Assembly: GCA_049603795.1 (NCBI GenBank)
Contig: JBMYSY010000011.1
Coordinates: 920-64,919 of the forward strand
Direction: 5' to 3'
Length of the DNA: 64,000 nucleotides
Source of the DNA: Magnetovibrionaceae bacterium
GTDB taxonomy: Bacteria > Pseudomonadota > Alphaproteobacteria > Rhodospirillales > JBMYSY01
The notes below the pieces were generated by a model. The model saw nothing but the letters and a program-made list of their open reading frames with translations, was not told the DNA's origin and searched no databases. Position numbers and translations under genes: made by a program. Below, one piece after another: positions 1,389 to 49,075 of this stretch (its first letter is position 1; each line of letters begins with the position of its first letter).

Positions 1389-1579
1389 GCCCTGGCGTGC
1401 AGGGCCGGTTGGGATAACACGATAGGCACCCTGGCGGACCTTTCCGCCCGTAGCAGCCAGCGTTAAGATGATCGCGGTGATTCTGTTCGCAGAGCCACCG
1501 CGATTTTTTTTGATCCAAACCCGTGCACGCCGGGGGCCTGTCCGTTCCGTGCCGCATTTTTTTGGGGTGTGCTTCTCTC

Positions 1580-2227
1580 ATGGCCGTGAATCTCGACCTT
1601 CGTGTTGCCCAGCTGCTTTGTTCGCGTGTCTGCCACGACCTTGTCGGCCCCTCCGGTGCGATCAATGCGGGGTTGGAATTGATGATGGAGCAGTCGGGCC
1701 AATTGGACGGTCCTGATGGGCCCCTATCCCTGGTCGAACGTTCTGCACAGATGATGGGGCATCGCCTGGCTTTCTATCGGGTGGCCTTTGGCTCCGGTGG
1801 CGGCGGAGGGCCGAGGCCACTCGCAGAGGCGGCGAAACTGTCGCGGGACTTTTTGTCCGATAGTACGGTTTCACTGGAGTGGCAGCAGATTGAGGAACAA
1901 GCCCTGGCGGAAGGTGGTTCGAAGCTTCTGCTGAATATGGTGCTCCTGGGGCACGAATGCCTGCCGAGAGGGGGGCGACTCTCCGTCAGCTTTGCCGGAC
2001 TCGATGAAGGGATTGGTGCTGCCATGGTCGCCGAGGGGCCAGGCGCACGTCTGAAGGATGATGTCCGCGCGGCCCTTGACCCGGAAGCGCCGGCCGATCA
2101 TCTGACGGCCCGTAATGCCCACGCCCATTACGCCCAGAAACTCGCGGAAAGCCTGGGCGGCCTGATCGAGGTGGCCGATGGTGCGGGCGATGAAGTGCAG
2201 TTGGCGGTTCTGCTTCCTTTTGCCTAA
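1580..2227 (+). CDS. chpT: ChpT-type histidine phosphotransferase (CtrA phosphorelay)
   Basis: The N-terminal LLCSRVCHDLVGPSGAINAGLELM matches the ChpT H-box helix, followed by a degenerate HATPase-like C-terminal half. At about 215 aa from ATG 1580 it matches the size of Caulobacter ChpT. Confidence 0.7.
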   Translation: MAVNLDLRVAQLLCSRVCHDLVGPSGAINAGLELMMEQSGQLDGPDGPLSLVERSAQMMGHRLAFYRVAFGSGGGGGPRPLAEAAKLSRDFLSDSTVSLEWQQIEEQALAEGGSKLLLNMVLLGHECLPRGGRLSVSFAGLDEGIGAAMVAEGPGARLKDDVRAALDPEAPADHLTARNAHAHYAQKLAESLGGLIEVADGAGDEVQLAVLLPFA

Positions 2228-2511: not shown

Positions 2512-5500
2512 ATGGATGATCTTTTAAGCGAATTTTTGACCGAAACGTCGGAAAGCCTTGCGGTGATCGACGTTGAACTCGTGAAGTTCGAGCAGAACCC
2601 GAACGACGCGGACATACTTTCAAACATCTTCCGACTGGTTCACACCATCAAAGGCACCTGCGGGTTCTTGGGTCTCCCCCGGTTGGAATCTGTCGCCCAC
2701 GCGGGCGAGAATGTGCTCGGTAAATTCCGCGATGGGGCGCTGGAAGTGACACCCGATGCGGTGACGCTGATCTTGCGCTGCATCGATACCATTCGCGACC
2801 TGTTGGCCGAGTTGGAAGAGACCGGTCAGGAGCCCGATGGCGATGATAGCGAGATCATTGCCCAGTTGAATGACATGGCGGAAGGCAAGTATCACGCCGC
2901 GCCGGCGGCGGCTGCTCCTGCGGCAGATCCCGTCCCCGCGCCCGCCCCCGCTGTTGAAGACACGCCTTTCCCGGTTGCCAAGGAACTGCTGGACGAGGTG
3001 GCCGAAGCTGAAGCTGCCGGTGTCACTGCCGCTTCCGATGCCCAGATGGTTGCTGAAATGGAAGCCGAGGGTGCTTCCGATGCGGGGCCCGCCGAAGATA
3101 CGCCTTTCCCGGTCGCCAAGGAGTTGCTGGACGAAGTGGCCGAGGCCGAGGCTGCTGGTGTAACTGCGGCCTCTGATGCTCAGATGGTCGCAGAAATGGC
3201 TGAAGAGAGCGCTGCCGAACAGGCTCCCGCCACTCCGGCCCCGCCGGCTCCCGCCCCGACCCCGCCGGCTGTTGCCGCCAAGCCGCCCGCACCGGTGAAG
3301 AAAGATGCCGGACCGCCGGCTGAGAAGAAAGAACACAAGGAATCCTCCATCGCCGCATCTTCGATCCGCGTGAACGTGGATGTACTGGAAAACCTGATGA
3401 CGTTGGTCAGCGAAATGGTGCTGACCCGGAACCAGCTCTTGCAGATGATCCGCGGTAAGGACGATAGCGAGTTTGCCGCGCCGCTGCAGCGCCTCAGCCT
3501 GATCACGACCGACCTTCAGGAAGGCGTGATGAAAACCCGCATGCAGCCGATCGGCAATGCCTGGGCCAAGCTGCCTCGGATCGTGCGCGATCTGTCGGTT
3601 GAATCCGGCAAGAAGATCGAGCTGAAGATGCTGGGTGCCGAAACGGAACTGGACCGACAGGTGCTGGAGCTGATCAAGGATCCGCTGACGCACATGGTGC
3701 GGAACTCAGCCGATCACGGCCTGGAGGATCTGCAGGGCCGGCGTGCCGCGGGTAAGCCGGAAACCGGTACGATCACGCTCAACGCTTTCCACGAGGGCGG
3801 TCACATCATCATCGAGATCAAGGATGATGGCCGGGGCCTGAACCTGGATAAGATCAAGGAAAAAGCCATCGCCAACGGCGTCGCGACCGAGGCCGAGATG
3901 GAAAACATGGCGGATCAACAGATTTATCAGTTCATCTTTGCCGCCGGGTTCTCGACCGCCGAAAAAGTCACCAGCGTGTCGGGGCGTGGCGTCGGCATGG
4001 ATGTGGTGCGAACCAACATCGAAAAGATCGGCGGTACCATCCAGTTGAAGTCGGTGCCGGGCAAAGGCTCGACCTTTACCATCAAGATTCCGCTGACCCT
4101 CGCCATTGTGTCCGCTCTGATCGTCGAATGCGGTGGGGAGCGCTTTGCCGTTCCGCAGATCAGTGTGCTCGAACTGGTGCGCGCTTCCAACAACTCCGAG
4201 CATACAATCGAGATGATCAACAACTCGCCGGTTTTGCGTCTGCGCAATCGGTTGTTGCCGCTGGTTTCGCTGCGAGAGTTGCTGGCCCTTGATGCGCTCA
4301 AGGCAGAAAAAGAACGCGCCTCTGAGGTGCAGCTGATCAAGCAGCGCAAGGCGGATGCGCTTTCCCAGGCGACGGCAAACGGCTTCTCCGAGGAGGAGGC
4401 CGCACAGATCGCCGCTGCGGCGGCAGAGGGGGACGACACCGAAGGCCTGGATATGGACATGGGCCTGAAGCGGACCTCGGATGAGGTGTTCATCGTCGTG
4501 ACCCAGGTCGGCAACTATACCTTTGGGATCATTGTGGATCGGGTCTTCGACACCGAGGAAATCGTCGTCAAACCGACCGCGCCGATCCTGCGCGATATTC
4601 CCTTCTATTCCGGCAACACCATCCTGGGCGACGGCTCGGTGATCATGATCCTGGATCCGAATGGAATCGCGGCATCGACCGGCCAGGCCGGCATGCAGGG
4701 CGATGGCGAAGCCGAAGCTCAGATGTCTGCTCAGCAGGCCCTGCAGGACGAAACCACGAGCCTGCTCATTTTCCGGGCCGGAGGCCAGGAACTGAAGGCC
4801 GTGCCGCTGGCGCTCGTTGCCCGCCTGGAAGAAGTCGATATGGCAGAGACCGAATCGGCCCACGGCAATATGTTGGTTCAGTATCGCGGCCGCTTGATGC
4901 CTTTGGTCCCGTTCAACGACTACCACGAATGGAAATCCGAGGGTCGCCAACCGATCCTGGTGTTTACCGAAGGTGAGCATTCCATGGGGCTCGTCGTTGA
5001 TGAGATCGTCGATATTGTCGAAGACAAGCTGAAGGTCGAACTGTCGGCCGATGCACCTGGCCTGATTGGCAGCGCGATTATTGCGGGCAAGGCGACGGAC
5101 GTCATCGATGCGGGCCACTTCCTGACCCGGGCCTTCCCCGATTGGTTTGGTGCCAATCAGAACGAAGGTTTCGATACCATCGGCGGAAACAGTGATGGTC
5201 GCCGGGTTCTTCTCGTGGACGACAGTCCGTTTTTCCGCAACCTGCTCAGCCCGCTGCTCTCCGTTGCCGGTTATCAGGTGACCTCGGTCGAGAGCGCGGA
5301 GGGGGCCCTGGATATGCGCGAAAGGGGTTACGAATTCGATGTCATCATCTCGGACATCGAGATGCCGGGCATGAGCGGGTTCGAATTCTGTGCCGATGTG
5401 CGTTCCGATGAACGCTGGCGCGAAATTCCGATGGTAGCGCTGTCCAGTCATGCCACGGAACGGGATTTCGAACGCGGTCGGGAAGTCGGTTTCAATGATT

Positions 5501-5580
5501 ACGTCGCCAAATTTGATCGTGAAGCACTGGTGAGCACCATTGCCGATACGGTTGCCATGGCGAGTGTGACGCGGAATTGA
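2512..5580 (+). CDS. cheA: Hybrid chemotaxis histidine kinase CheA (Hpt, acidic repeat linker, dimerisation/HATPase, two CheW-like domains, C-terminal receiver)
   Basis: Domains read from the translation: Hpt motif RLVHTIKGTCGFLG; HATPase blocks (HMVRNSADHG, DDGRGL, GRGVGMDVV); two consecutive CheW-like segments (FAVPQISVLE.., LLIFRAGGQELKAVPL..); and a REC domain (RVLLVDDSPFFR..DVIISDIEMPGMSG..KF). Confidence 0.95.
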   Translation: MDDLLSEFLTETSESLAVIDVELVKFEQNPNDADILSNIFRLVHTIKGTCGFLGLPRLESVAHAGENVLGKFRDGALEVTPDAVTLILRCIDTIRDLLAELEETGQEPDGDDSEIIAQLNDMAEGKYHAAPAAAAPAADPVPAPAPAVEDTPFPVAKELLDEVAEAEAAGVTAASDAQMVAEMEAEGASDAGPAEDTPFPVAKELLDEVAEAEAAGVTAASDAQMVAEMAEESAAEQAPATPAPPAPAPTPPAVAAKPPAPVKKDAGPPAEKKEHKESSIAASSIRVNVDVLENLMTLVSEMVLTRNQLLQMIRGKDDSEFAAPLQRLSLITTDLQEGVMKTRMQPIGNAWAKLPRIVRDLSVESGKKIELKMLGAETELDRQVLELIKDPLTHMVRNSADHGLEDLQGRRAAGKPETGTITLNAFHEGGHIIIEIKDDGRGLNLDKIKEKAIANGVATEAEMENMADQQIYQFIFAAGFSTAEKVTSVSGRGVGMDVVRTNIEKIGGTIQLKSVPGKGSTFTIKIPLTLAIVSALIVECGGERFAVPQISVLELVRASNNSEHTIEMINNSPVLRLRNRLLPLVSLRELLALDALKAEKERASEVQLIKQRKADALSQATANGFSEEEAAQIAAAAAEGDDTEGLDMDMGLKRTSDEVFIVVTQVGNYTFGIIVDRVFDTEEIVVKPTAPILRDIPFYSGNTILGDGSVIMILDPNGIAASTGQAGMQGDGEAEAQMSAQQALQDETTSLLIFRAGGQELKAVPLALVARLEEVDMAETESAHGNMLVQYRGRLMPLVPFNDYHEWKSEGRQPILVFTEGEHSMGLVVDEIVDIVEDKLKVELSADAPGLIGSAIIAGKATDVIDAGHFLTRAFPDWFGANQNEGFDTIGGNSDGRRVLLVDDSPFFRNLLSPLLSVAGYQVTSVESAEGALDMRERGYEFDVIISDIEMPGMSGFEFCADVRSDERWREIPMVALSSHATERDFERGREVGFNDYVAKFDREALVSTIADTVAMASVTRN
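2956..3198 (+). repeat. Two copies of a 105-nt (35-aa) module inside cheA, separated by 33 nt
   Basis: Copies 2956-3060 and 3094-3198 both encode EDTPFPVAKELLDEVAEAEAAGVTAASDAQMVAEM. They differ at 16 nucleotide positions, all synonymous. Confidence 0.95.
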
Positions 5581-5891
5581 GGCGAAGCTGAACAGGCGGG
5601 CTGATTGGCCGTTCAAAAGGGTATTATCTGCGCTTGGCAACCGGGGGGCGGCATGAGTACTGTTGTCAGGACGCCCATTGGTTAAAAACAAGGGCCAGGG
5701 GTGATCCCGGGATATGGCCTTGGGTGTTCGGCACTTACGTGTCCGACGCGCGGGTGCGTACGATGCTCGGGGGTCGGCTAAGAGAACAGAGCGACCGAGG
5801 CAGGAGTCCTCTTCGGATCAGGCCTCGGGTGACCACCTGGGCGCGAGAGGCGCTCTGGTCAAGGGAAGCAGTTGGGGAAGCGAAGGTAGTC

Positions 5892-6257
5892 ATGAAATCT
5901 TGTTTGATCGTTGATGATTCCAAGGTCATCCGGATGGTCGCCCGGAAAATCCTTCAGGAATTGGAGTTTGGTACAGTCGAGGCAGCGGACGGCCAACAGG
6001 CGCTGGATGCCTGCAAGTCCAGTATGCCGGCAGCCATTCTGCTCGACTGGAACATGCCAGTCATGAGTGGGATCGAATTCCTGCGGGAGCTGCGCAAACT
6101 GCCGAGTGGCGGGGATCCTATTGTCGTATTCTGCACCACGGAAAACGACATTGAACACATCCAGGAAGCCATCGAAGCCGGTGCCAACGAGTACATCATG
6201 AAGCCCTTCGATAGCGAGATTATCCAGGCGAAGTTTTCCCAGGTTGGGCTTCTCTAG
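5892..6257 (+). CDS. cheY: Single-domain response regulator CheY
   Basis: The 121-aa protein from ATG 5892 (MKSCLIVDDSKVIRM..LLDWNMPVMSG..YIMKPF) is a complete receiver domain. The upstream part of ORF 5634..6257 is Arg/Trp-rich and not protein-like. Confidence 0.9.
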   Translation: MKSCLIVDDSKVIRMVARKILQELEFGTVEAADGQQALDACKSSMPAAILLDWNMPVMSGIEFLRELRKLPSGGDPIVVFCTTENDIEHIQEAIEAGANEYIMKPFDSEIIQAKFSQVGLL

Positions 6258-6275: not shown

Positions 6276-7478
6276 GTGGGCATTGATACGCAAGGTAGAT
6301 CGACCGAAAGCAGCCCGTCTGGCGACGTCACCAGAGTGATGATCGTCGACGATTCGGCTGTTGTACGCGGTTTGATTTCGCGCATGGTCGATGGCGAAGC
6401 GAATTTTAAGGTCGTTGCCTCGGTTGGAAATGGCCAGATGGCGGTCAGCAACCTGCAGCGCAATCCCGTTGACGTGATTATCCTGGACATCGAAATGCCG
6501 GTGATGGACGGCCTGACCGCCATACCGAAGCTTTTGGAAGTTGATCCCGAGGTCAAGATCGTCATGGCCTCGACCCTGACCGTACACAACGCCGAGATTT
6601 CCATGAAGTGCCTGGCAGCGGGGGCCTGCGACACGATTGCAAAGCCTTCGTCGTCCCGCGAAATTTCCGGCGGTGTGGACTTCCGTGATCTGTTGCTCCA
6701 AAAAGTCCGCTCGTTGGGCGAGGCGCGAAAGAAGGCCGGGAATCGTCGCGGTGGCGGCACGGCACCGGCACGCCGCGTGCCATTTTCGCGACCGGGCACC
6801 ACACCCGCATCGGGTACGCCGGCATCGTCACCTTCGCCAAAACCCTCGTTGTTGTCGCCGACCGAGCCGGTCAAGGTCCGCCAGCCGGGCCGCCAGAAGC
6901 CAGAGATCCTAGCAATCGGATCCTCCACCGGCGGGCCACAGGCTCTGTTCGTTTTCCTGAAGGCCTTGGACAAGAATATTCGGGTTCCGATCGTCATCAC
7001 CCAGCATATGCCTAAGACCTTTACGACCATCCTGGCGGATCACATCAACCGCATGACGGGCTGGCCATGCGAAGAAGCGACAGACGGCATGTCTTTGCAG
7101 CCGGGCAGGATCGCGCTGGCGCCCGGTGACTACCACATGACCATCGAAGGCAGCGCAGCATCGAAGACCCTTCGACTCAATCAGGATCCGCCGGAGAATT
7201 TTTGCCGACCGGCTGTCGATCCGATGTTGCGCAGTGTTGTGAATGTCTACGGCGGTAAGGCTGCCGTTGTCATTCTGACCGGCATGGGTTCCGACGGGTG
7301 CAAGGGGGCCTCCAAGATCGTGGAGGCCGGGGGTACGGTGGTTGCTCAGGATGAGGAAACCAGCGTTGTTTGGGGTATGCCGGGTGCTGTGGCACAGGCA
7401 GGCCTGTGTTCAGCTGTTCTGGCGCTGGATGATCTGGCGCCCTATGTGAACAGGCTATTGGGTAGGGGCGTGGCATGA
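6276..7478 (+). CDS. cheB: Protein-glutamate methylesterase CheB (REC plus methylesterase, long Pro/Ser linker)
   Basis: It has a REC domain (MIVDDSAVVRG..ILDIEMPVMDG) and CheB catalytic blocks (IGSSTGGPQAL, ITQHMP, GMGSDG, AQDEETSVVWGMP). The start is GTG 6276 (GGGGA RBS) or ATG 6339. Confidence 0.92.
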   Translation: MGIDTQGRSTESSPSGDVTRVMIVDDSAVVRGLISRMVDGEANFKVVASVGNGQMAVSNLQRNPVDVIILDIEMPVMDGLTAIPKLLEVDPEVKIVMASTLTVHNAEISMKCLAAGACDTIAKPSSSREISGGVDFRDLLLQKVRSLGEARKKAGNRRGGGTAPARRVPFSRPGTTPASGTPASSPSPKPSLLSPTEPVKVRQPGRQKPEILAIGSSTGGPQALFVFLKALDKNIRVPIVITQHMPKTFTTILADHINRMTGWPCEEATDGMSLQPGRIALAPGDYHMTIEGSAASKTLRLNQDPPENFCRPAVDPMLRSVVNVYGGKAAVVILTGMGSDGCKGASKIVEAGGTVVAQDEETSVVWGMPGAVAQAGLCSAVLALDDLAPYVNRLLGRGVA

Positions 7479-8530
7479 AGCCAGAGGATTTCGACTTCAT
7501 CAGCACACTGGTGAAACAACGGTCCGGTTTGGTTTTGACAAAGGACAAGGCTTACCTGTTGGAAAGCCGCCTGATGCCGGTTGCCCGCAAGCGCGGCCTG
7601 AAAGGTTTGGAAGAGCTGATCGGTGTGGTCCGCACCCGCAAGGAAGAGGCGCTGATCAAGGAAATCACGGAAGCCATGACGACCAACGAGTCGTTCTTCT
7701 TCCGCGATCTGAAGCCCTTCGACCTTTTCCGAAATAACATTCTGCCTGAACTGATCAAATCCCGCGCGGCAAAGAAATCCTTCCGAATCTGGTGTGCCGC
7801 GGCTTCCAGTGGCCAAGAGCCCTATTCCCTGGCCATGATCCTGAAAGAGGAAGCCGCCAAGCTGGCAGGCTGGCGGATTGAGATTGTCGGCACGGATATC
7901 TCTTCGGACATCCTGAACAAGGCCAAGGCGGGCGTTTATACCCAGTTCGAGGTTCAGCGCGGTCTGCCGATCCAGCTTTTGGTGAAATACTTCAAGAAGC
8001 AGGACGAATATTGGGCGATTGACCCGCAGATCCGCTCGATGGTGCAATACCGCGAATACAATCTGCTGGATAACCTGAGGCCACTCGGTAATTTTGATGT
8101 GGTTTTCTGTCGTAACGTTTTGATTTACTTCGATCAGGAAACAAAGGGTCGGGTGCTGGAACAGGTTGCCAGCCTGATGCCGGATGATGGCGTCCTGTTC
8201 CTGGGTGGTGCCGAGACCGTGCTTGGCATTTCCGACAAATTCAAGCCGCTGGCTGGACAGCGCGGCGTCTACGGCCTGAGTGGCGGTGCCGCTGCCATCG
8301 GTGGTGCAGCAGCTCCCGCCCGGCCTGCCGCACCGGCTCCTGGGGCTCGTCCGGCACCGACGGCCGGTGCGCCACGTCCAGCGGCTCCGGCAACACCGAC
8401 GCGCCCTGCGGCTCCGGCAACTCCGCCACGCCCGACGACGCCACCCCGTCCCACGACACCGGGCTCAGCCGGTACGACCACGCGCCCGGGCTTTACGCCC
8501 AGGCCCAACAGCCCTTTTAAGAAGCCCTGA
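7475..8530 (+). CDS. cheR: Chemotaxis protein methyltransferase CheR with Pro/Ala/Thr-rich C-terminal tail
   Basis: It overlaps cheB by ATGA. It shows the CheR N-terminal helical domain, a SAM-MTase core (IWCAAASSGQEPYSLAM, VVFCRNVLIYFD), and an 80-aa low-complexity tail (RPAAPATP and PRPTTP repeats). Confidence 0.92.
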   Translation: MKPEDFDFISTLVKQRSGLVLTKDKAYLLESRLMPVARKRGLKGLEELIGVVRTRKEEALIKEITEAMTTNESFFFRDLKPFDLFRNNILPELIKSRAAKKSFRIWCAAASSGQEPYSLAMILKEEAAKLAGWRIEIVGTDISSDILNKAKAGVYTQFEVQRGLPIQLLVKYFKKQDEYWAIDPQIRSMVQYREYNLLDNLRPLGNFDVVFCRNVLIYFDQETKGRVLEQVASLMPDDGVLFLGGAETVLGISDKFKPLAGQRGVYGLSGGAAAIGGAAAPARPAAPAPGARPAPTAGAPRPAAPATPTRPAAPATPPRPTTPPRPTTPGSAGTTTRPGFTPRPNSPFKKP

Positions 8531-18738: not shown

Positions 18739-19143
18739 TTACACCCGGCGGATCCGGCCCAACAGATGCCGGTTGTCCCAGCGCGGCTGGCGGTCCTCAA
18801 GAATCACTTGGTAAGCAGGCCCGCTTTCGTCTGCCTGAGCCTCAGTCAAGATGATCTGAAGCCAGCGCGGCACGAGTTCATTATTCAAGTCGTCGCGGAT
18901 TAAAACAGCTATTTCTTCCAAATTGCTCTGTGGAGGTCTTAAGCTGCTCAGCATAGTATCGAAACTTTTAAGCCAGTATTTTACAGAATAAATATCGAGA
19001 ATGAGCTTGTCCGGTACGTACCATAAATCGACTGAGCGCTGGCCTATCTTGAGGTCTCTGAAGGTGACGATATAGTCTTTTTGTATTTCCGGATTGGGCT
19101 TAGTTTCGAGCCGTTCCCGTCTTTGCAACGCGTCCTCAATCAT
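18739..19143 (-). CDS. QueF-like T-fold protein lacking the catalytic Cys (function unknown), low GC
   Basis: WYVPDKLILDIYSVKYWLKSF and LEEIAVLIRDDL resemble the QueF signature (YIPD..[9 protein letters not shown].SF .. HE..). The position of the CPxTGQPD Cys reads DLKIGQRS. It overlaps the upstream gene by ATGA. GC is about 40 percent by eye. Confidence 0.45.
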   Translation of the reverse strand: MIEDALQRRERLETKPNPEIQKDYIVTFRDLKIGQRSVDLWYVPDKLILDIYSVKYWLKSFDTMLSSLRPPQSNLEEIAVLIRDDLNNELVPRWLQIILTEAQADESGPAYQVILEDRQPRWDNRHLLGRIRRV

Positions 19144-20858
19144 ACCGTCAGCCCCTCGCCTGGTCGCCGCAGTCGTTCTCCCTGCGACCGAACTTCGATA
19201 AAGCCCGGCGGTTGGGCCTGGAACAGTACGCCACCCTCGATCCCCGTGATCTCGCCCGCTTCGCGGAAGATCTCGCGGATGTGGTCGCGCATGCGCCCCG
19301 GCAGCGGTGCATCGGAGCGGATGATCAGGTCCAGCTGTTGGATTTCGCCTCGCTTCTTGACCATGCCATCGAGTTGCAGGTGACCGAGCTTGGTCATCTC
19401 CAGATCGACAACAAAGCGTGTTCCTTCGTCTCCCTTGTTGCCCTCTTCGTCTTCCTCGCCACCGAAGTTGCGGGTGTGGAAGCGGACCTGGCTCAGCTCC
19501 TCGCCGTTCATGACCGGAACGGCCACCGTCCGCCAGTCCCCCTCGCGGGACTCTTCCGAGCCCGTCTTCAGGCGCTGGAAGTCCCGATCCAGCCGTCCTG
19601 CGATTGTCGGGTTCAGCCGTGTCAGGCGGTCAAGGCCCTCGCCCAGAAGCGCCCGCATGTCGCCACCACGCAGGACGCTCATGAACAACAGCATTCCGGC
19701 CCCCAGTGCGGTGCCGTCGGCGCGCGGCAGGGCGCGGGCGACCTGTTGGAAGGCTTGGGGGTCCGCTGACTCCAGGGTCTTCAAGGCAGTGCGAAGGGCC
19801 GGCCATTCCCGTTGCAGATTGGCGAGCTCTGCCTCGGCGAAGGTGGCGGGCAGGGTCAAGGGGGCCGGGCCGGTCGGGCTTGTGCTGACCTTGAGTTGAA
19901 GGCTGCTGCCCACCTCCAACCCGGCGGCCTTGGCTGTTCCCAGAACCAGGCCCCGTGCTTCCAGGATGGCGCTGCCGTCCGGGGTGAGGCCGGTGACCCG
20001 GGCCGTGATCAGACCGCCCGGTGCAAGTTGGCCCGGTGCCGCCGTCGGTTGGGTGGCGAGGGCACCGCCGGCACCGCCGCCTGGGGCCTCTACCTTGATG
20101 ACCTGGGCGGAGAACTGACTTCCCGCTGGGACCGGCACACCGCGGCTGCCCGCCTGGGGGGCCTGGCCTTGCGCGTTCCCGGACTGCCCCTGCCGGAGGG
20201 AAGGGCCTGCGGATTGGGCTGTCGAGGGTTTGCCGGGAACTGGTGCCGTGCTTTGCTGGGTCTGTCCGTTGGAAGAGCTGGCCGTTGAAACTCCCGCCGG
20301 ACCGGACGAGGCGGCCAGAGGGGAGGCACCTTGGCCGGTTGCTGATGGGATCGTTCCCGTTTGCCCGGCCAAAGGAGCACCTTGTCCAGAAAATGGGCGC
20401 AGCACGGTAAGCCCAACGGTCTGGCCGGCGTTGAAGGTCGGTGATCCACCGGGTGCTGTCTGGGCGGCCCCTGCCTGCAGGCCGCCTTGGCTCAAGGCTC
20501 CGGTCAACTTGGGCCCGCCGGCCTGGAGACCGGCCAATTGTCCCGGCTCAGGTGGTTTACCATTGATTTTCAGGATGGCGAGCTGCAGCTGGTTGCCGGC
20601 GCGGGTGACCTGAAGCTGCAGGGCTGTCTGTTGGGGCAGGGTAAGTCCGGTAGCCAGTTGCGCAGGGCCGAGGGGGGTCTGGATTGAGGTTTGGCCATTG
20701 GCCGAATTGCCGAGGATTGTCGCCGTCAGTTGGGCCGCGAGGGGCAGTTTGGCCAGCGCCGGGGGCGGGTTCGCCACCAGGACCACCGGCTGTGTCGCTT
20801 TCGCGGTCGGCGGCGGCGCAGGTGATTGGACGATCGGCGGCGGGACCTGGGTGCTCAT
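19140..20858 (-). CDS. Pro/Gly/Gln/Ala-rich protein with C-terminal FliK-like (Flg_hook-type) domain
   Basis: It is a 572-aa protein with a low-complexity N-terminal two thirds. The C-terminal FVVDLEMTKLGHLQLDGMVKK..LDLIIRSD..IREIFREAGEITG follows the hook-length-control C-domain pattern. It is the last-but-one gene of the flhA-flhF-flhG operon. Confidence 0.5.
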   Translation of the reverse strand: MSTQVPPPIVQSPAPPPTAKATQPVVLVANPPPALAKLPLAAQLTATILGNSANGQTSIQTPLGPAQLATGLTLPQQTALQLQVTRAGNQLQLAILKINGKPPEPGQLAGLQAGGPKLTGALSQGGLQAGAAQTAPGGSPTFNAGQTVGLTVLRPFSGQGAPLAGQTGTIPSATGQGASPLAASSGPAGVSTASSSNGQTQQSTAPVPGKPSTAQSAGPSLRQGQSGNAQGQAPQAGSRGVPVPAGSQFSAQVIKVEAPGGGAGGALATQPTAAPGQLAPGGLITARVTGLTPDGSAILEARGLVLGTAKAAGLEVGSSLQLKVSTSPTGPAPLTLPATFAEAELANLQREWPALRTALKTLESADPQAFQQVARALPRADGTALGAGMLLFMSVLRGGDMRALLGEGLDRLTRLNPTIAGRLDRDFQRLKTGSEESREGDWRTVAVPVMNGEELSQVRFHTRNFGGEEDEEGNKGDEGTRFVVDLEMTKLGHLQLDGMVKKRGEIQQLDLIIRSDAPLPGRMRDHIREIFREAGEITGIEGGVLFQAQPPGFIEVRSQGERLRRPGEGLTV

Positions 20859-33193: not shown

Positions 33194-34996
33194 ATGCCGC
33201 AGAGCAAATCCAAACGAAAGAAGCCCAAGAAGAAGGCCCCAGGCGGTGGCACGTCGCCCAAGACCCAGCCGATGATCACGGCCAGCGCGCGCGAGTTGGA
33301 CAGCGGCCAGGGCGGGGAGGCGAAGCTGGCAGAGGCTTTGGAGGCCTTCAACGCCCAAAACTGGCGCCGGGCCCTGACCCTGCTGGGCCATTATCTGAAG
33401 GATCATCCGACCCATCTTAAAGCCAACAAGATGGTCGTCGCCGCCTGGTTCGGGGAAGCGCAGCCGCTGAAGGCCGTCCCCGCCATGCGCATCGTGGCGG
33501 AACAGGAACCGGACAACCTGAACGGGCTGATCCGACTGGCCCATGTTCTGATCGAGGCCAACGAACTGCCGGAAGCCGAGAGCTGGCTGCGAAAGGCACT
33601 GAAACTGGCGCCGGAGAACGCCACCGTGCTGCGGTCTTTGGGGGCGGTCCTGCGCGATACCGGCCAGTTGAAGGAAGCGGTAGAGATCCTGAAGCGCGGC
33701 GTCGCTATCGACCCCCGGCCCTATGATATGGAATCCGGGCTGATCTTCTGTCTCGATTTTGTCCAGGATTCGACAACCGCCGAACAGCAGGCACAGCGAA
33801 GAGCCTGGGTTGATCGCTGGGTCGTGCCCCATGTGACGCCGATGCGCCATGACCCTTCGGGCCAGGTTCCGGATCGGAAGATCCGGGTCGGATATGTCTC
33901 GGGCGATTTCCGGAACCATTCGGCGGCGCGTTGTTTCGGACCGGTCGTCCTGAACCATGACCGGGAATCCTTTGAGGTTCACCTCTATTCGGCTTCCCCC
34001 GTCTACGACGACCTCTCGCAACGTTTTCGCGCCCATGCGGATGGCTGGCATCCGGTATGGCGGCTGAAGGAACAGGAGCTGTTCAGCAAGATCCAGGAAG
34101 ACCGGATCGATATCCTGGTCGATCTTTCCGGGTTCACCCTGGGCAACCGGCTGGGAGCCTTGTCGGGGAGGCCTGCCCCGATCCAGATCACCGCCTGGGG
34201 GCATGCCCATGGCGTCGGCATGCCTTCGATTGATTTCCTGTTTTCCGATCCTGTCTGTGTGCCGGAAGAGGAACGTTCCCTGTTCCCGGAAGAAATCGCC
34301 GACCTTCCCTGCCTGATCAGCTTTGATGCACCGGCGGATGCGCATCACCCGGGTCCTCTGCCGGCCCGGACGCGCGGCTTCGTCACCTTTGGCTGTTTCA
34401 ACCGGATCGTGAAGGTGACCGACGAGAGCCTGGCGCTTTTTGTTCGCGTGTTGGACGCCGTGCCGGACAGTCGGATCGTCTTCAAGGCGGGTGATTTCAG
34501 CAAACCCGGCGTCGTGTCACATTTCCGAACCTTCTTTGCGAAGGCAGGCATTGCGGAGGACCGCGTGACCCTGCTGGGCGACACCGACCGGGCGGAGCAC
34601 CTGGCGGCCATGTCGTCGGTGGATATCGCGCTTGACCCCATCCCGCACGGTGGAGGGGTCACGACCTTCGAGACCCTCTGGCAGGGCGTGCCGGTGGTGT
34701 CGCTCTATGGCAAGTCGGTGCCGGGCCGGGTCTCTGCGGCGATCCTGACCGCCTGCGGTCTGCCGGATTGGGTGGCCGGATCGGAAGACGACTATGTGGC
34801 GCTGGCTGCCGCCAAGGCCCGGGATCGAGAAACCCTCGGGAGTCTGCGCAGTGGCCTGCGCGATCAGGTCGCGTCCTCCGATGCTGTCCGCCCCGGCGCC
34901 TACGTCGCCGCCGTCGAGGCCTCTTACCGCGCCATGTGGCGGCGATACTGCGCGACCGGCAGCCCTCGAAGCCGCCCGCGAGAAGGCCAGGTTTGA
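33194..34996 (+). CDS. TPR-repeat protein with C-terminal GT41 (OGT/SPINDLY-like) glycosyltransferase domain, paralogue 1
   Basis: N-terminal TPRs are followed by the SPINDLY-family pattern: RVGYVSGDFRNHSAA, IDILVDLSGFTLGNRL, RPAPIQITAWGH, FGCFNR, IALDPIPHGGGVTTFETLWQGVPVV. Confidence 0.85.
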   Translation: MPQSKSKRKKPKKKAPGGGTSPKTQPMITASARELDSGQGGEAKLAEALEAFNAQNWRRALTLLGHYLKDHPTHLKANKMVVAAWFGEAQPLKAVPAMRIVAEQEPDNLNGLIRLAHVLIEANELPEAESWLRKALKLAPENATVLRSLGAVLRDTGQLKEAVEILKRGVAIDPRPYDMESGLIFCLDFVQDSTTAEQQAQRRAWVDRWVVPHVTPMRHDPSGQVPDRKIRVGYVSGDFRNHSAARCFGPVVLNHDRESFEVHLYSASPVYDDLSQRFRAHADGWHPVWRLKEQELFSKIQEDRIDILVDLSGFTLGNRLGALSGRPAPIQITAWGHAHGVGMPSIDFLFSDPVCVPEEERSLFPEEIADLPCLISFDAPADAHHPGPLPARTRGFVTFGCFNRIVKVTDESLALFVRVLDAVPDSRIVFKAGDFSKPGVVSHFRTFFAKAGIAEDRVTLLGDTDRAEHLAAMSSVDIALDPIPHGGGVTTFETLWQGVPVVSLYGKSVPGRVSAAILTACGLPDWVAGSEDDYVALAAAKARDRETLGSLRSGLRDQVASSDAVRPGAYVAAVEASYRAMWRRYCATGSPRSRPREGQV

Positions 34997-36657
34997 TGAG
35001 CGATCCGGTACGAGACGCCGCCGTCGAAATCTCTCAATTGATGCAGAAGGGCGACAGCGCCGAGGCCTGTGACCGGGCCGAGTTGCTGGTCGAGGCCCAT
35101 CCCGAGAGCCGGATCGCCCGCCAGGTGGCCGCCGCTGCCGCCCTGCAGGACGAAGATCCGGAAACCGGACTGATTCATCTGCTCTGGCTGCTGAAGCGCG
35201 ATCCCGAAGACGTCGAACGGCTGCGCCAGGTGGCGACCGTGCTTCTGGATATGAAACGCATGGCAAAGGCCGAACCTTACCTGCGCCTAGCAATGGGCAA
35301 GGAGCCGAAGCGCCCGGACCTGCATATCGATCTCGCCCGTTCGCTCGCGTCACAGAAAAAACATGCCGAGGCCGCGCATCACTATCGGGTGGCGATGGAA
35401 CTGGATCCCGACAACGAGATCACGCCGGAGAACCTGATCTTTATCCTGGACTTCATCCCGGAAGAAGACACCGCCCGTCAGCAGTTGGAGCGTCGGCGTT
35501 GGTACGAACGCTTCGTCGAACCCAATGTGGAGGCAAAGACCTATGATCCGGCCGAGGCCGACCCGGACAAGCCGGTGCTTCGCATCGGTTACGTCAGTGG
35601 TGATTTCAAACTGCACTCGGCCGCCCGGATTTTCGGGCCCATGATCCGGGACTACGACCGTGAGCGGTTCGAGGTCTATTGCTATCACACCGAACCGGAC
35701 GAGGACGAAGAGACCGAACGCTACCAGGCGGCGGCAACAGAATTCCGTATGGTCAGCCAGTACGACTATGGCGGCCTGACCAATCTGATCCGCAGGGATG
35801 CCCCTGATATCCTGGTGGACCTGTCCACCTTCACCCGCGGCGGTCGGCTCGAGACCTTCGCCCGCCGAGCGGCCCCGGTGCAGATTTCCGCCTGGGGCCA
35901 TTGCCATGGGACCGGCCTGCCGACCATGGACTATCTGTTTTCGGATAAAAACTGCATTCCGGCGGAAGAGCGATCGCTGTTTTCCGAGACCATCGTCGAT
36001 CTGCCTTGCGTGATTACCTTCGCGCCCGAAGACGGCCTGCCCGATGTGTCGGATGCCCCCTTCCGGCGAAACGGATACATCACTTTCGGTAGCTTCAACC
36101 GTATGGAAAAGCTGACAGCCGAATCCCTGGCGCTCTGGTGCCGGGTGCTGGCGGCGGTGCCGGGGTCGAGGCTGCTGTTGAAGGCGGGTGGGTTCGAGAC
36201 GGCTGTCGAGCGGGACCGGGTCTGGCAGGCTCTCCAGTCCGCCGGACTGGATCCCAATCGGGTGACCATGGCCGGCAGCACGGAACGCGACATCCATCTG
36301 ACCGCCATGAGCGACTGCGACATCGGTCTGGACACCTATCCCCATGGCGGCGGCATGACCACCTGCGAGATGCTCTGGATGGGCGTACCCGTGATCGCTT
36401 TGCGCGGCCGGGCGGTCGCGGGGCGGGTCTCGTCTTCGGTTTTGAGCACCCTCGGACTGGATGACCTTGTCGCGGATCATCCCGACACTTACGTTTCCGC
36501 TGCACAGGCCCTGGCGGCAGATCCTGATCGCCTTTTGGACTTGCGCCGTGAAATGCGGTCACGGATGACCACTTCGCCGCTTCTGGGTATCGAGCGCTAT
36601 GTGCGCGCGGTGGAAGACATCTACTTCAGGCTCTGGCGCGACTGGGCCGCGGGTTGA
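34996..36657 (+). CDS. TPR-repeat protein with GT41-like glycosyltransferase domain, paralogue 2
   Basis: ATG 34996 overlaps the upstream stop (TGATG). It shows the same motif series: RIGYVSGDFKLHSAA, PDILVDLSTFTRGGRL, RAAPVQISAWGH, FGSFNR, IGLDTYPHGGGMTTCEMLWMGVPV. Confidence 0.85.
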   Translation: MSDPVRDAAVEISQLMQKGDSAEACDRAELLVEAHPESRIARQVAAAAALQDEDPETGLIHLLWLLKRDPEDVERLRQVATVLLDMKRMAKAEPYLRLAMGKEPKRPDLHIDLARSLASQKKHAEAAHHYRVAMELDPDNEITPENLIFILDFIPEEDTARQQLERRRWYERFVEPNVEAKTYDPAEADPDKPVLRIGYVSGDFKLHSAARIFGPMIRDYDRERFEVYCYHTEPDEDEETERYQAAATEFRMVSQYDYGGLTNLIRRDAPDILVDLSTFTRGGRLETFARRAAPVQISAWGHCHGTGLPTMDYLFSDKNCIPAEERSLFSETIVDLPCVITFAPEDGLPDVSDAPFRRNGYITFGSFNRMEKLTAESLALWCRVLAAVPGSRLLLKAGGFETAVERDRVWQALQSAGLDPNRVTMAGSTERDIHLTAMSDCDIGLDTYPHGGGMTTCEMLWMGVPVIALRGRAVAGRVSSSVLSTLGLDDLVADHPDTYVSAAQALAADPDRLLDLRREMRSRMTTSPLLGIERYVRAVEDIYFRLWRDWAAG

Positions 36658-45739: not shown

Positions 45740-46897
45740 ATGACCATCGAACGGATCATCCTTGTCACCCACAATGTGCCGAACCACTTTCACCCCCGTC
45801 TGGTGCGGGACCTGGGCGCGGCTTTTGAAGGCTTGGGATTTGAGACCCAGGTTTTCCTGCCGGCCATCGACGGGTCCGATGCCGCACCTTTTCTCCAGGC
45901 CTTGGCGGAAGGGGCCAAAGCCGGACCGGAGAAGACCCTGTTGGTCGACGTCAATGCGCGGGTCCGATTGCCCGATGCCGAACCGTTCAGGCGGTTTTCC
46001 ATCATTATCGATCACGCCTATCAGCATGTAGAGCGTCTGCGCGCGTTGCCGGACCAAGCCGTTGTCGGCTTCATGGACAGCGACAGTCCGGCTTTTCTCA
46101 GCAAGCTTGGAATCAACAGAAGCCATATTCGCCTGCACCATGCGGCATCGGTCACGCCCGAGCCGCCGATGCCGATCCCCGAACGCGAAATCGATATTCT
46201 GTTTCCGGGAAGGCTGGAACGTCAGCACGCTCGCGATGCTTTCCAGGCCCATCTGGCGGAAGCGCCCCCTCCCGTCGCCCGGGCGACCTTGGAATTTGCT
46301 GATCGCCTGGTGGCCGGGCAGGAGACCTCGGAGGCCTTTCCTGCGGCCTTTTCGGCGCAAGGGATCGGGCTGGAGCAGTTGGACGATGAAAGCCTCTTTC
46401 AGGTGGGGCAGATGGCCTATGGCTACGCGGAGGCTCACCTGCGTTACCGGGTGTTGACGGCGCTGGAGGGGCTTCCTGTTACTGTCATCGGGCAGGTTTC
46501 GCGGGACTTCTTTTCCAGGCCTCCCGGCGGCTTCCGGTTTCTCGGGCCGCAATCCTTCGATCAGGTGGTCGAGGCCATGGGGCGGTCGAAAATCTGTTTG
46601 AACCTGCTGGGCGTGAACCCTTTGTCCAGCCATGAGCGGATGTTCTACGCCAGTGCCGCCGGGGCCGTGCTGGCGACCGATGGCAATCTCTTTGTCCAAG
46701 AGACCTACCGGGACGGCCATTCCTGTGCCGTGATCTCGCCAGAGTCCGCCCGCTCGAAAGTGGAAGCTCTCTTGGCGGAGCCGGAAAAGGCCGGGGCCAT
46801 CGCCGCGACCGGGCGAGCCCTGGTGGCTTCCGCTCACAGTTGGACCCACCGGGCCAGAGATATTCTTGCCGCTTGCGGCGTCGCGGTTTCAGCCTGA
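45740..46897 (+). CDS. Hypothetical protein with CgeB/GT1-like C-terminal region
   Basis: In this 385-aa protein the C-terminal third (ICLNLLGVNPLSSHERMFYASAAGAVLATD..AEPEKAGAIAATGRALV..HSWTHRA) resembles CgeB-type glycosyltransferase tails. The assignment is weak. Confidence 0.45.
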   Translation: MTIERIILVTHNVPNHFHPRLVRDLGAAFEGLGFETQVFLPAIDGSDAAPFLQALAEGAKAGPEKTLLVDVNARVRLPDAEPFRRFSIIIDHAYQHVERLRALPDQAVVGFMDSDSPAFLSKLGINRSHIRLHHAASVTPEPPMPIPEREIDILFPGRLERQHARDAFQAHLAEAPPPVARATLEFADRLVAGQETSEAFPAAFSAQGIGLEQLDDESLFQVGQMAYGYAEAHLRYRVLTALEGLPVTVIGQVSRDFFSRPPGGFRFLGPQSFDQVVEAMGRSKICLNLLGVNPLSSHERMFYASAAGAVLATDGNLFVQETYRDGHSCAVISPESARSKVEALLAEPEKAGAIAATGRALVASAHSWTHRARDILAACGVAVSA

Positions 46898-49075
46898 GCC
46901 TGAGGCGGATATCTGACGGTAGAGCGCGCGCAATTTGGTATCGAAATCCCTCGCGAATCCTGCGCTGTCGCATACGGGCGAAGCCACGAAGCGTTCCCTC
47001 AATCCCTTCCGGGCTTCGGCCAGAGTATCCTTGTCCCGCCCGAGAGCGACGGCCTTGGCCACGAAGTCGGCCTTGTCTTCCGCGATCCATTCGGCCAGCC
47101 CGGCATGGTACAGGTGGCTGGCGGCATGGCGGCTGACGAAGCGCCTGCCCTTCCAGGCAATCACCGGGACCCCCATCCAAAGCGCCTCGCAGGCCGTCAC
47201 ACCGGCGGAATAGGGGGTCGAATCGAGCGCGACGTCAATCTGGTCATATGCCCCGATGAAGGCATGATGGCCGGCCCCCGGGATCAAGGTGATGCGGTCT
47301 TCTGAAAGGCCCAGGGCAGCGAGCCGGTCGAGAAAGGCCCGCGCGATGTCGCGCTGATCGAAACCGGGGGAGTTCAGCACCAATCGGCTGTCCGGCAGAG
47401 TGTTCAGAATCTCGGCAAAGGCTTCGAGGCAGCGGGGCGACAGCTTGAAGCTGGCACTGAAACAACCGAAGGTCAGCGGCCCGCCCGACAGAAGACTTCC
47501 CCTGGAGGGCAGAAGCGGCGTGTGGTCCGGTCCATAGGCCGGGGGGCGGAAGCAGGTATGGTCACCGCCCAGCCGGATCACCCGTTCCGAATAGAGCCCG
47601 TCATCGGCTTCCGGCGATTGGATGGCATCCCCGATGAAAGCGTCCACGGCGTCCAGGCACGTTGTCGAGACGGCATCCATCCAGACGGCCTGAACCGGCG
47701 CGGGGCGGCGCGCCAGGAGATCCAGGCTATTGCCGCGCACATGGCCGTCCATCTCGACCAGCACGTCGATCCCCGCGGCCCTGACAGTTTCGGCGCGGGC
47801 CTCCAGGCTCATCCCCGCCAGGTCGAAAAACCGCGTCGCGTGCCGCTCGAAGACGGGGGTCCAGCCATCGGGTTTGGGCGTGGTCGAAAAGAGAACGATG
47901 TCGGTCCTGGTCTGGTCCCAGGCCTGGAGCGGGCCCAAAAACAGTGACATGTGGGCATATTCGCGAAAACCACTGGAAAGAAAGCCGATGGTGAACCGGT
48001 TGCCCTCTTCCAGTTCCCGCATCGGTGGCCGGTCGGGGGTTGCCGCGTTCAGGGGTTCTGCCCGCCTTGTCCTTGGTCGAAGGCGCTCCTCCGGGCCGCA
48101 GTCCTGGGCATAGAGCTGGCAGGAAATGAAGGTGTCGAGAAGCGCCGTCTGTTCAGGCTTCAAAGCCGCCGCCCGCTCCAGATCGCTCAAAGCCTCATCG
48201 GCAAGTCCCAGGGCAAAGCGGCCCATGCCCCGGTTGTAGAGAGCGTCGGCGTTATCGGGTTCGATCCGGAGCACGTCTTCCCAGAGCCGCATCGCCTCGC
48301 CCAGCCGTCCCGCGGCTTGCAGGCATTCGCCCAACCGGACGCGGGGGGCCGTGAGCCAGGGCTGCAACTCGACGGCCTGAACTTGGTGGTGCAGGGCACG
48401 TTCGGGGTCGTTCAGGGCCATGTGGGCTTCGGCGGCGAGGCCTTGTATTTCGCCGCTTTCGGGCTTTTGGGCGACCAGGGTTTCGGCTTCCGTCAGGGCT
48501 TCCCGGCCCCGGCCCAACTGGATCAAGGCCAGGGCCAGATTGCGCCGCGCCTCCTGGAACCCGGGGTCCTGGTCGAGCGCCCGGTTCAAAACCGAAAGCG
48601 CCTCATCTGCGCGCTGCTGGGCGACCAGCAATCCGCCCAACCCGGACATCAGGGCCGGATCGCCGGGCGCGGCCTGGAGAGCCTGCCGGTAGAGGCCTTC
48701 TGCCGCTGTCCGGTCGCCCGCCTGCCAGCACCAGAAGGCCAGGGGGCCCAGAACCCGGGGATCCTCTGGCCGGAGCAGGCGCGCGCGTTTCAGGGCTTCG
48801 CCTGAAACAGCCATGTCCCCGGCGGCCAGGGCGATTGTTCCAAGGTTGGTCAGGATGTCCGGATCACGGGGTTTGAGCTGCGCCGCCCGTCCCAGCAGCA
48901 GGCGGGCGGTTTTGGCATCCCCCGCAGCATGGCGGACAAGGCCGCGAAGATGATGCGCCTCGGCGAGGTCAGGGGTCTCGCGCAGCAGGTCGTCCAGCAG
49001 CGAGTCGGCCTCCGTCAGTTCGCCCTGCTGAAAAGCCTGTGCCGCTCGGGCAAGGACGGTCCCTGCTTCCGTCAC
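46889..49075 (-). CDS. TPR-repeat protein with GT41-like glycosyltransferase domain, paralogue 3
   Basis: The 728-aa protein has about ten TPRs followed by FTIGFLSSGFREYAHM, IDVLVEMDGHVRGNSL, RPAPVQAVWM, FGCFSA and VALDSTPYSAGVTACEALWMGVPV. Confidence 0.8.
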   Translation of the reverse strand: MTEAGTVLARAAQAFQQGELTEADSLLDDLLRETPDLAEAHHLRGLVRHAAGDAKTARLLLGRAAQLKPRDPDILTNLGTIALAAGDMAVSGEALKRARLLRPEDPRVLGPLAFWCWQAGDRTAAEGLYRQALQAAPGDPALMSGLGGLLVAQQRADEALSVLNRALDQDPGFQEARRNLALALIQLGRGREALTEAETLVAQKPESGEIQGLAAEAHMALNDPERALHHQVQAVELQPWLTAPRVRLGECLQAAGRLGEAMRLWEDVLRIEPDNADALYNRGMGRFALGLADEALSDLERAAALKPEQTALLDTFISCQLYAQDCGPEERLRPRTRRAEPLNAATPDRPPMRELEEGNRFTIGFLSSGFREYAHMSLFLGPLQAWDQTRTDIVLFSTTPKPDGWTPVFERHATRFFDLAGMSLEARAETVRAAGIDVLVEMDGHVRGNSLDLLARRPAPVQAVWMDAVSTTCLDAVDAFIGDAIQSPEADDGLYSERVIRLGGDHTCFRPPAYGPDHTPLLPSRGSLLSGGPLTFGCFSASFKLSPRCLEAFAEILNTLPDSRLVLNSPGFDQRDIARAFLDRLAALGLSEDRITLIPGAGHHAFIGAYDQIDVALDSTPYSAGVTACEALWMGVPVIAWKGRRFVSRHAASHLYHAGLAEWIAEDKADFVAKAVALGRDKDTLAEARKGLRERFVASPVCDSAGFARDFDTKLRALYRQISASGSG

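Follow-up and report, generated by a model that had tools for sequence, protein, structure and literature searches.

A protein-identical, silently diverged pair of 35-residue modules in the P1-P3 tether of a CheA-CheW-REC kinase without a P2 domain

The chemotaxis kinase CheA encoded in the 64-kb stretch of DNA analysed here (the window) carries, in the tether between its P1 and P3 domains, a 35-residue module in two tandem copies that are identical in protein and strongly diverged at silent sites. The explanation that we favour, with a probability of roughly 0.55, is that the copies were duplicated or homogenised long ago and that purifying selection has since acted on them as functional binding elements, which most likely dock CheY or CheB. 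The silent-site pattern of the two copies, the conservation of the module across related kinases, its position where other CheA proteins have P2 and the predicted structure of the tether all bear on this explanation and are considered below together with its competitors.

The two copies (window positions 2956-3060 and 3094-3198) are both in frame with the open reading frame (ORF) 2512..5580, and each translates to EDTPFPVAKELLDEVAEAEAAGVTAASDAQMVAEM. Of the 105 nucleotides (nt) in each copy, 16 differ between the two: 15 of these changes fall on the third base of a codon and one, in the Leu codon pair CTG/TTG, on the first, with 13 transitions and 3 transversions in all. Nei-Gojobori counting (S = 25.3, N = 79.7) yields 16 synonymous and 0 non-synonymous differences, that is, proportions of differing synonymous (pS) and non-synonymous (pN) sites of 0.63 and 0, and the Jukes-Cantor synonymous divergence (dS) is approximately 1.4. 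Under random substitution, the probability that all 16 differences are synonymous lies between 1.6e-10 and 6.7e-9. With pN of 0 against pS of 0.63, and a unit that is conserved in orthologues, the pair is a tandem coding repeat under purifying selection.

We observe that pairs of independent back-translations of the peptide, drawn with the codon usage of the window, differ at 20.0 +/- 3.0 nt (P(<=16) = 0.12), and that the longest identical run between the copies, 14 nt, also matches random back-translation (P = 0.71). Since the number of silent differences is close to that expected of independent back-translation, the synonymous sites are at or near saturation. Tandem Repeats Finder resolves 2956-3231 into 2.0 copies of a 138-nt unit, which consists of the module and an 11-codon spacer. 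The two spacers are identical at 21 of 33 nt, compared with a mean of 12.5 and a maximum of 19 for 45 in-frame control windows of the linker, and they differ at 7 of 11 residues through 3 synonymous and 9 non-synonymous differences (pS = 0.36, pN = 0.365). The divergence of the spacers is thus neutral-like, and the contrast between 0 of 35 module residues and 7 of 11 spacer residues changed is real. A preliminary description of this DNA had reported the identical peptides with their 16 silent differences, had read them as an old duplication under strong purifying selection and had proposed the comparison of non-synonymous with synonymous change given above. Translation and the Nei-Gojobori counts bear out the first of these, and near-saturated synonymous sites agree with the second, whether the date is that of the duplication or of the last homogenisation. 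The strength of selection needs qualification: the peptide is constrained, but strong constraint holds fully for its first helix only (module pN between species 0.31, against 0.14 for the kinase core).

With respect to the distribution of the module, we examined the 120 best CheA-CheW-REC homologues (61-70% identical, all from Rhodospirillales, with Magnetovibrio, Terasakiella and Magnetospirillum among the sources, and mostly metagenome bins); no public CheA is more than 70% identical to that of the window. All 120 carry it in the P1-P3 linker, in one copy (25 homologues), two (87) or three (8). In a full-length alignment of 74 homologues, P154 is invariant and A156, E158, L159, L160, E162, V163 and A166 are nearly so, which makes these residues as conserved as catalytic ones. 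The core can be written aromatic-x-P-[VI]-A-x-E-L-L-x-E-V-x-x-A, within a longer consensus N-E-F-G-A-P-V-A-[AQ]-E-L-L-[AD]-E-V-x-x-A-x-A-x-G-[VI]-x-A-A-[ST]-[DE]-x-Q-[MLI]-x-A-E-M. Across 223 module instances, an aromatic residue stands at most three positions before the invariant Pro in 96%, and the second helix is kept in 87%. Extra copies sometimes consist of helix 1 alone, which indicates that the minimal unit is helix 1 with its cap. A search of 1.84 billion representative proteins with the module profile returned 18 matches, all of them CheA proteins or N-terminal CheA fragments. Copy number shifts often along the distance tree, and the nearest neighbours of the window kinase have 1, 1, 2 and 3 copies.

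More distant orthologues (48-67% identical; Azospirillum, Thalassospira and Sneathiella among the sources) mostly do not have the module, and their P1-P3 slot holds another short motif, a globin domain, or Pro/Ala only. The alternative motif, which we call type B as opposed to the type-A module of the window, reads PGEVSL[DE]ELEAAFxAAPGPD or LQAAFD and occurs in the CheA linkers of related loci L010, L012, L019, L021, L039-L042, L044, L048, L050, L056, L062 and L076, as well as L022, L023, L029 and L013, twice each in L010 and L019. No relationship between the two types was detected by hhalign (probability 2.5%). A globin domain lies between P1 and P3 in loci L009, L026, L052, L060, L065, L066 and L075 and in proteins P0129, P0122 and P0099, and looks like a sensor domain built into the CheA tether. 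In P0129 the globin (PF00042, residues 186-286) is followed by one type-A module (residues 311-350), so that the module is retained beside the inserted domain.

The order of the Pfam domains, Hpt, dimerisation, HATPase_c and CheW-like, identifies the protein as a CheA. Hpt/P1 covers residues 3-99, P3 (H-kinase_dim) 283-342 and P4 (HATPase_c) 390-529, and these are followed by P5 (CheW-like), a second CheW-like domain and a C-terminal Response_reg domain at 899-1010. The P2 and CheY-binding models of Pfam gave no match in the whole CheA at E <= 0.01, and when the linker or the repeat was searched by itself, none appeared even at E <= 10. AlphaFold2 likewise predicts no globular fold between P1 and P3, just two short helices per module. 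In the full-length model, built with the 74 homologues, P1, P3-P5, the CheW-like domains and REC are confident, the module helices have a predicted local distance difference test score (pLDDT) of approximately 58-66, and the Pro/Ala linkers fall below 50. The isolated two-module segment shows the same helices at pLDDT 79-85 with a weak spacer between them, and its predicted template modelling score (pTM) of 0.30 indicates that they share no common globular fold. A profile search of the PDB with the module gave chance matches only (a helix of a plant telomere-binding protein, E = 0.007, and a carnitine acyltransferase). The preliminary description had placed the modules at the position of P2 and had seen no globular P2 there, and both Pfam and AlphaFold2 concur, with the modules lying between the Hpt and dimerisation domains. 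It had proposed to check whether orthologues conserve the motif and its copy number, and had named as a refutation that they lack the motif or let it evolve freely. The check does not refute its reading, as the motif is found in all 120 closest homologues with a nearly invariant core, but copy number varies from one to three, and the distant CheAs of Azospirillum, Thalassospira, Sneathiella and others do not have the module.

To place the window pair among others, copy-pair DNA was taken from 20 other genomes, with at least 13 module-bearing loci from a metagenome scan serving as extra pairs. Six pairs are old and diverged (pS 0.59-0.85, 10-17 residue differences). The remaining pairs form a continuum, with synonymous/non-synonymous counts of 4/2 (L081), 5/3 (L091), 8/2 (L088), 9/4 (L083), 10/3 (L082), 11/2 (L101), 16.5/5.5 (L085), 16.8/7.2 (L086) and 20/3 (L084), and two further pairs in this continuum have 4/7 and 8/3. 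When module pairs are restricted to the 572 that have 14 or more synonymous differences, those closest in protein turn out to be same-genome pairs, with 0 residue differences in the window, 3 in L084, 4 in L085 and 5 in L086, against a median of 15. Module identity is 72% within a genome, 63-64% at the same position in different genomes and 61% at different positions.

Silent-site-diverged pairs also contain runs of 6-10 identical codons (permutation P = 0.05 for L082, 0.045 for L084, 0.021 for L085 and 0.006 for L086), a pattern in these sequences that suggests short or partial gene conversion tracts. The window pair shows no such identity tract (codon-run permutation P = 0.86), from which it follows that any gene conversion there is old. 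The residues that follow copy 2 read AEESAAEQAPA in the window and AAESAAEQAAA in P0002, the nearest two-copy homologue, and this match means that the two-copy state was probably inherited. The window modules differ from those of P0002 at about one third of positions, yet are identical to one another, so that homogenisation or re-duplication must have taken place later in the lineage of the window.

Taken together, the results give strong support to the view that the module is a conserved helix-loop-helix of approximately 35 residues, specific to CheA, in the P1-P3 tether of a P2-less Rhodospirillales CheA-CheW-REC family. Strong support also exists for the proposed history, in which the copies would have arisen by tandem duplication of the 138-nt unit, or gene conversion would last have made them identical, at a time so distant that synonymous sites have since come close to saturation, and in which amino-acid changes since then would have been purged from both copies, each being a working binding element. 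The near-invariant side chains, the aromatic-Pro cap and the restriction to CheA indicate a binding element that folds on a partner rather than an inert spacer, and so do its retention beside a globin domain and the predicted helices in an otherwise floppy tether. Such an element would be an acidic amphipathic helix with an aromatic-Pro turn cap and an optional second helix. P2 is known to make phosphotransfer to CheY faster, yet over half of CheAs do without it, and several lineages, for example Borreliales, have duplicated it (PMC10542144). The position of the module in the place of P2, together with this role of P2, ranks docking of CheY, and perhaps of CheB, first: the element may well hold a receiver substrate beside the phospho-histidine of P1 and would thereby concentrate the substrate locally, in the manner of the E. 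coli P2 domain, while two or three copies could provide avidity or hold two substrates together.

Several observations weigh against this explanation, some against the choice of partner and others against the degree of constraint. Residues of CheY that are distinctive of module-bearing genomes do not cluster on the alpha4-beta5-alpha5 face but are spread over the protein, in a comparison that phylogeny confounds. The full-length AlphaFold2 model docks the modules neither on the kinase's own receiver nor on any other CheA domain. No profile similarity was detected to the FliM N-terminal peptide, the CheZ C-terminal peptide or the Pseudomonas putida CheA repeat. The FliM and CheZ peptides scored 1.0 and 0.2 bits against the module profile, values reached by 5% and 4% of shuffles. 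A first impression of a FliM-like pattern is accordingly unsupported, with the P. putida repeat, FliM and CheZ all non-significant against both the type-A and the type-B profile. Furthermore, the closest precedent for repeats in a CheA linker has been assigned to ParP, a CheW-like scaffold, and not to CheY (bioRxiv 10.1101/2025.10.27.684771). As for constraint, the mean pN of the module between species is 0.31-0.32, against 0.14 for P1 or the P3-P4 core, with the interspecies changes mostly in the second half of the module. Low-replacement pairs of the family, when pooled, have 27% non-synonymous differences, a proportion under which 0 of 16 has P of about 0.006; compared with the most constrained single pair, L084 (3/23), the window's 0 of 16 has P of about 0.1. 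The window pair thus lies at the far end of a genuine distribution, a place that calls for stronger constraint on the second helix than usual, or for some luck, but for no new process. A bolder version of the favoured explanation goes further, and we regard it as tentative, at clearly less than even odds: the module would be an undescribed CheY- and/or CheB-docking element that replaces P2, one of several interchangeable P1-P3 cassettes (type A, type B with PGEVSLxELEAAF, and globin), with its copies kept identical to fit one partner surface and codon divergence perhaps favoured because it stabilises the repeat.

The main rival, which we consider rather unlikely, leaves the evolutionary history unchanged and alters the partner. 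The modules would be scaffold sites like the LID repeats, docking a CheW-like domain or a polar-positioning or array scaffold in array assembly or localisation, with a ParP-type protein, free CheW or the second CheW-like domain of a neighbouring CheA as candidates. This is in line with P. putida CheA, where the corresponding region (residues 196-295) contains three repeats of 19 residues, of which two are identical, DEITDAEFESLLDQLHGKG; in AlphaFold3 models these repeats sit on ParP, at its CheW-like domain, and their position overlaps that of the LID with which Vibrio CheA binds ParP (bioRxiv 10.1101/2025.10.27.684771). The window CheA also carries an extra CheW-like domain, and module and P. 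putida repeat are both acidic amphipathic helices with an LLD core. The resemblance does not extend to the profile level, where the repeat scores -0.2 bits against the module, equalled by 10% of shuffles, nor to the core motif, since EFExLLD is absent and the module has [K/A/Q]ELL[D/A]EV instead. No ParC or ParP gene, which the organisms with LID repeats are expected to have, is seen in the window or in the gene neighbourhoods, whole genomes not having been searched. Moreover, module-less orthologues still have the second CheW-like domain, and AlphaFold2 does not place the modules on it.

An intramolecular role appears less probable still. Here the helical hairpins would determine how long, how stiff or how mobile the P1 tether is, or would bind P1, P4 or the fused receiver so as to gate autophosphorylation or a phosphate sink. 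The prediction of structured helices within an otherwise low-confidence tether is compatible with it, as is the variation in copy number and spacer length, which is expected of a tunable spacer, and the fused receiver is a plausible internal target given the phosphate-sink role discussed in PMC10542144. A spacer role nevertheless leaves the near-invariant P, A, E, L, L, E, V and A and the aromatic cap unexplained, AlphaFold2 finds no confident contact of the modules within CheA, and their pLDDT is lower in the full-length model than in isolation.

A minor rival, to which we assign a low probability, concerns the age of the pair: the duplication would be recent and its age overstated, the 16 silent changes and those of the spacers having been driven by selection against recombination or slippage between repeats, and the zero residue changes reflecting the short time elapsed. 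Zero non-synonymous differences are indeed few compared with family pairs of equal synonymous change (P ~ 0.006, pooled, as above), changes have occurred at all types of site where they leave the module unaltered, no identical run exceeds 14 nt, and selection could act on an advantage as small as the deletion rate if bacterial populations are very large. Yet the number and spacing of the differences fit random back-translation (P = 0.12 for number, 0.71 for run; permutation P = 0.86), and the over-dispersed spacing of silent differences that would be a sign of selection against recombination is not seen in the window pair. Near-identical repeats with long identical runs persist in the relatives L081, L087 and L091, and the pS values of family pairs run through the entire range without a break. 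Codon divergence driven by selection, although conceivable, is not required to explain the pair. Finally, chance or an assembly artefact, such as two strain variants of a single-copy module joined in tandem, is highly improbable: the source is probably a metagenome or draft contig and the protein occurs on one contig only, but 16 of 16 synonymous differences would arise by chance with a probability of about 1e-9, and we rejected an artefact because the frame is intact through 1022 residues, distinct spacers flank the copies, and the two-copy layout recurs in 87 of 120 homologues from independent assemblies.

Table 1. Positions in the window of the CheA gene, its tether elements and the neighbouring genes considered as partners.
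Feature	Position	Strand	Basis and remarks
ChpT-like histidine phosphotransferase gene	1523..2227	+	Pfam PF10090; directly upstream of cheA; candidate partner
CheA-CheW-REC hybrid kinase gene	2512..5580	+	1022 residues; ORF list, Pfam, 120 homologues alike in architecture
Pro/Ala-rich linker, P1 to module 1	2884..2955	+	AlphaFold2 pLDDT <50, low-confidence segment residues 137-157
Module copy 1	2956..3060	+	Residues 149-183, EDTPFPVAKELLDEVAEAEAAGVTAASDAQMVAEM; translation, AlphaFold2, family profile
Predicted helices of copy 1	2974-3015; 3037-3066		Residues 155-168 and 176-185; AlphaFold2
Spacer 1, EAEGASDAGPA	3061..3093	+	Diverged portion of 138-nt unit; Tandem Repeats Finder, control windows
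Module copy 2	3094..3198	+	Residues 195-229, peptide identical to copy 1; translation
Predicted helices of copy 2	3112-3153; 3175-3216		Residues 201-214 and 222-235; AlphaFold2
Spacer 2, AEESAAEQAPA	3199..3231	+	Resembles tail after copy 2 of homologue P0002
Pro/Ala/Lys-rich linker, module 2 to dimerisation domain	3232..3357	+	AlphaFold2 pLDDT <50, segment residues 236-289
Second CheW-like domain of CheA	4759..5151	+	About residues 750-880; Pfam CheW in several stretches; beta-rich AlphaFold2 fold
REC domain of CheA	5206..5541	+	Residues 899-1010; Pfam Response_reg; candidate partner in cis
CheY, single-domain response regulator	5892..6257	+	Pfam; candidate docking partner
CheB (REC and methylesterase)	6276..7478	+	Pfam; candidate docking partner

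The genes around the kinase (Table 1) follow the order ChpT-like gene, cheA, cheY, cheB and cheR, and then a large flagellar gene set. CheY is 79-90% identical across genomes with a module-bearing CheA (tblastn, related loci), and the second CheW-like domain of CheA is a further candidate partner of the modules, in cis or between CheA molecules. The ChpT-like gene was also considered as a partner that varies together with the module and was rejected as such a correlate, as it lies upstream in approximately 70 of 88 related loci (L001-L088) whatever their linker type; its product could form a phosphorelay with the fused receiver of CheA. Within the kinase, P5 holds a partly helical, acidic insert of 74 residues (CheA residues 586-659, window 4267-4488), and the length of this insert ranges from 16 to 187 residues across 117 homologues, with a median of 36. 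The mechanically called CheY ORF (5634-6257) opens at a TTG at 5634 and would encode 207 residues, with the receiver domain beginning at residue 91; translation more probably starts at the ATG at 5892, and the resulting protein of about 121 residues is like the homologues of related loci. The CheR ORF (7475-8530) has 351 residues, while the CheR domains stop at residue 263 and the L081 and L082 homologues have 270-278 residues, so that the surplus residues are either a true extension of the C-terminus or the product of an overlooked stop codon or a frame error.

The remainder of the window from 8607 to 63883 is a flagellar supercluster. It contains genes for an OmpR-type regulator, FliI, FliJ, FlhA, a sigma-54 activator, MotA, FliN, FliH, FliG, FliF, the hook protein, FliK, two flagellins, FlaF and two Maf glycosyltransferases, together with nucleotide-sugar genes of the pseudaminic-acid type, as well as a 572-residue ORF (19140-20858) adjoining a MinD/ParA-like ATPase. 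Two large proteins that combine TPR with a GT41 (O-GlcNAc-transferase-like) domain are encoded within the cluster (34768-36657, +; 46889-49075, -) and may be involved in flagellin glycosylation.

Ordinary processes thus account for the evolutionary puzzle posed by the identical copies, and the lasting interest lies in the finding that P2-less CheA kinases carry a conserved element that is no larger than a peptide and lends itself to experiment. No description of the module was found in the literature searched, and the main survey of CheA architectures treats the P1-P3 regions of P2-less kinases as unstructured (PMC10542144). The present family shows that a CheA linker can carry a conserved, repeatable module under selection, and the silent-site pattern provides a clean natural marker of which residues matter in a tether that would be called "disordered". 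Docking of CheY or CheB by the module would account for fast phosphotransfer in P2-less kinases and offer a peptide-sized handle for tests; docking of a scaffold would extend the LID idea from Vibrio and Pseudomonas to the alphaproteobacteria.

In comparison with known systems, the module resembles P2 in lying between P1 and the dimerisation domain, in being flanked by flexible linkers, in being accessory and in being duplicated in some lineages. The two differ in that P2 is globular, whereas the module is a 35-residue helix-loop-helix with neither a Pfam match nor a globular fold, and with a putative binding of CheY. The LID repeats of P. putida and Vibrio are, like the module, short acidic amphipathic peptides repeated in the CheA linker after P1, and the protein identity of two of the three P. 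putida repeats parallels that of the window copies. Unlike them, the module has the motif PVAxELLxEV and not EFExLLD, its unit is longer and includes a second helix, and it belongs to another class of CheA, in which CheW and REC domains are fused. The N-terminus of FliM and the C-terminus of CheZ bind receiver domains as short acidic helices that bear a hydrophobic stripe, and the likeness of the module to them is one of general chemistry only.

Repeats of the polyubiquitin type combine identical protein units with diverged silent sites, as a result of strong purifying selection and occasional homogenisation. The signature in the window is like theirs, although the protein is unrelated, only two units are present and the module is not extremely conserved between species. 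In the CheA-short form of E. coli, Leu123 and Leu126 at the end of P1 form a CheZ-binding site (PMC7750401), which is likewise a short hydrophobic docking element in the N-terminal region of CheA; it lies within P1 and in another group of organisms, whereas the module is a separate, repeated unit in the tether. By sequence, the module is neither a P2 domain nor a member of the EFExLLD/LID group, and by fold, too, it is set apart from P2. What it shares with P2 or the LID repeats is its architecture and, probably, the kind of job that it performs.

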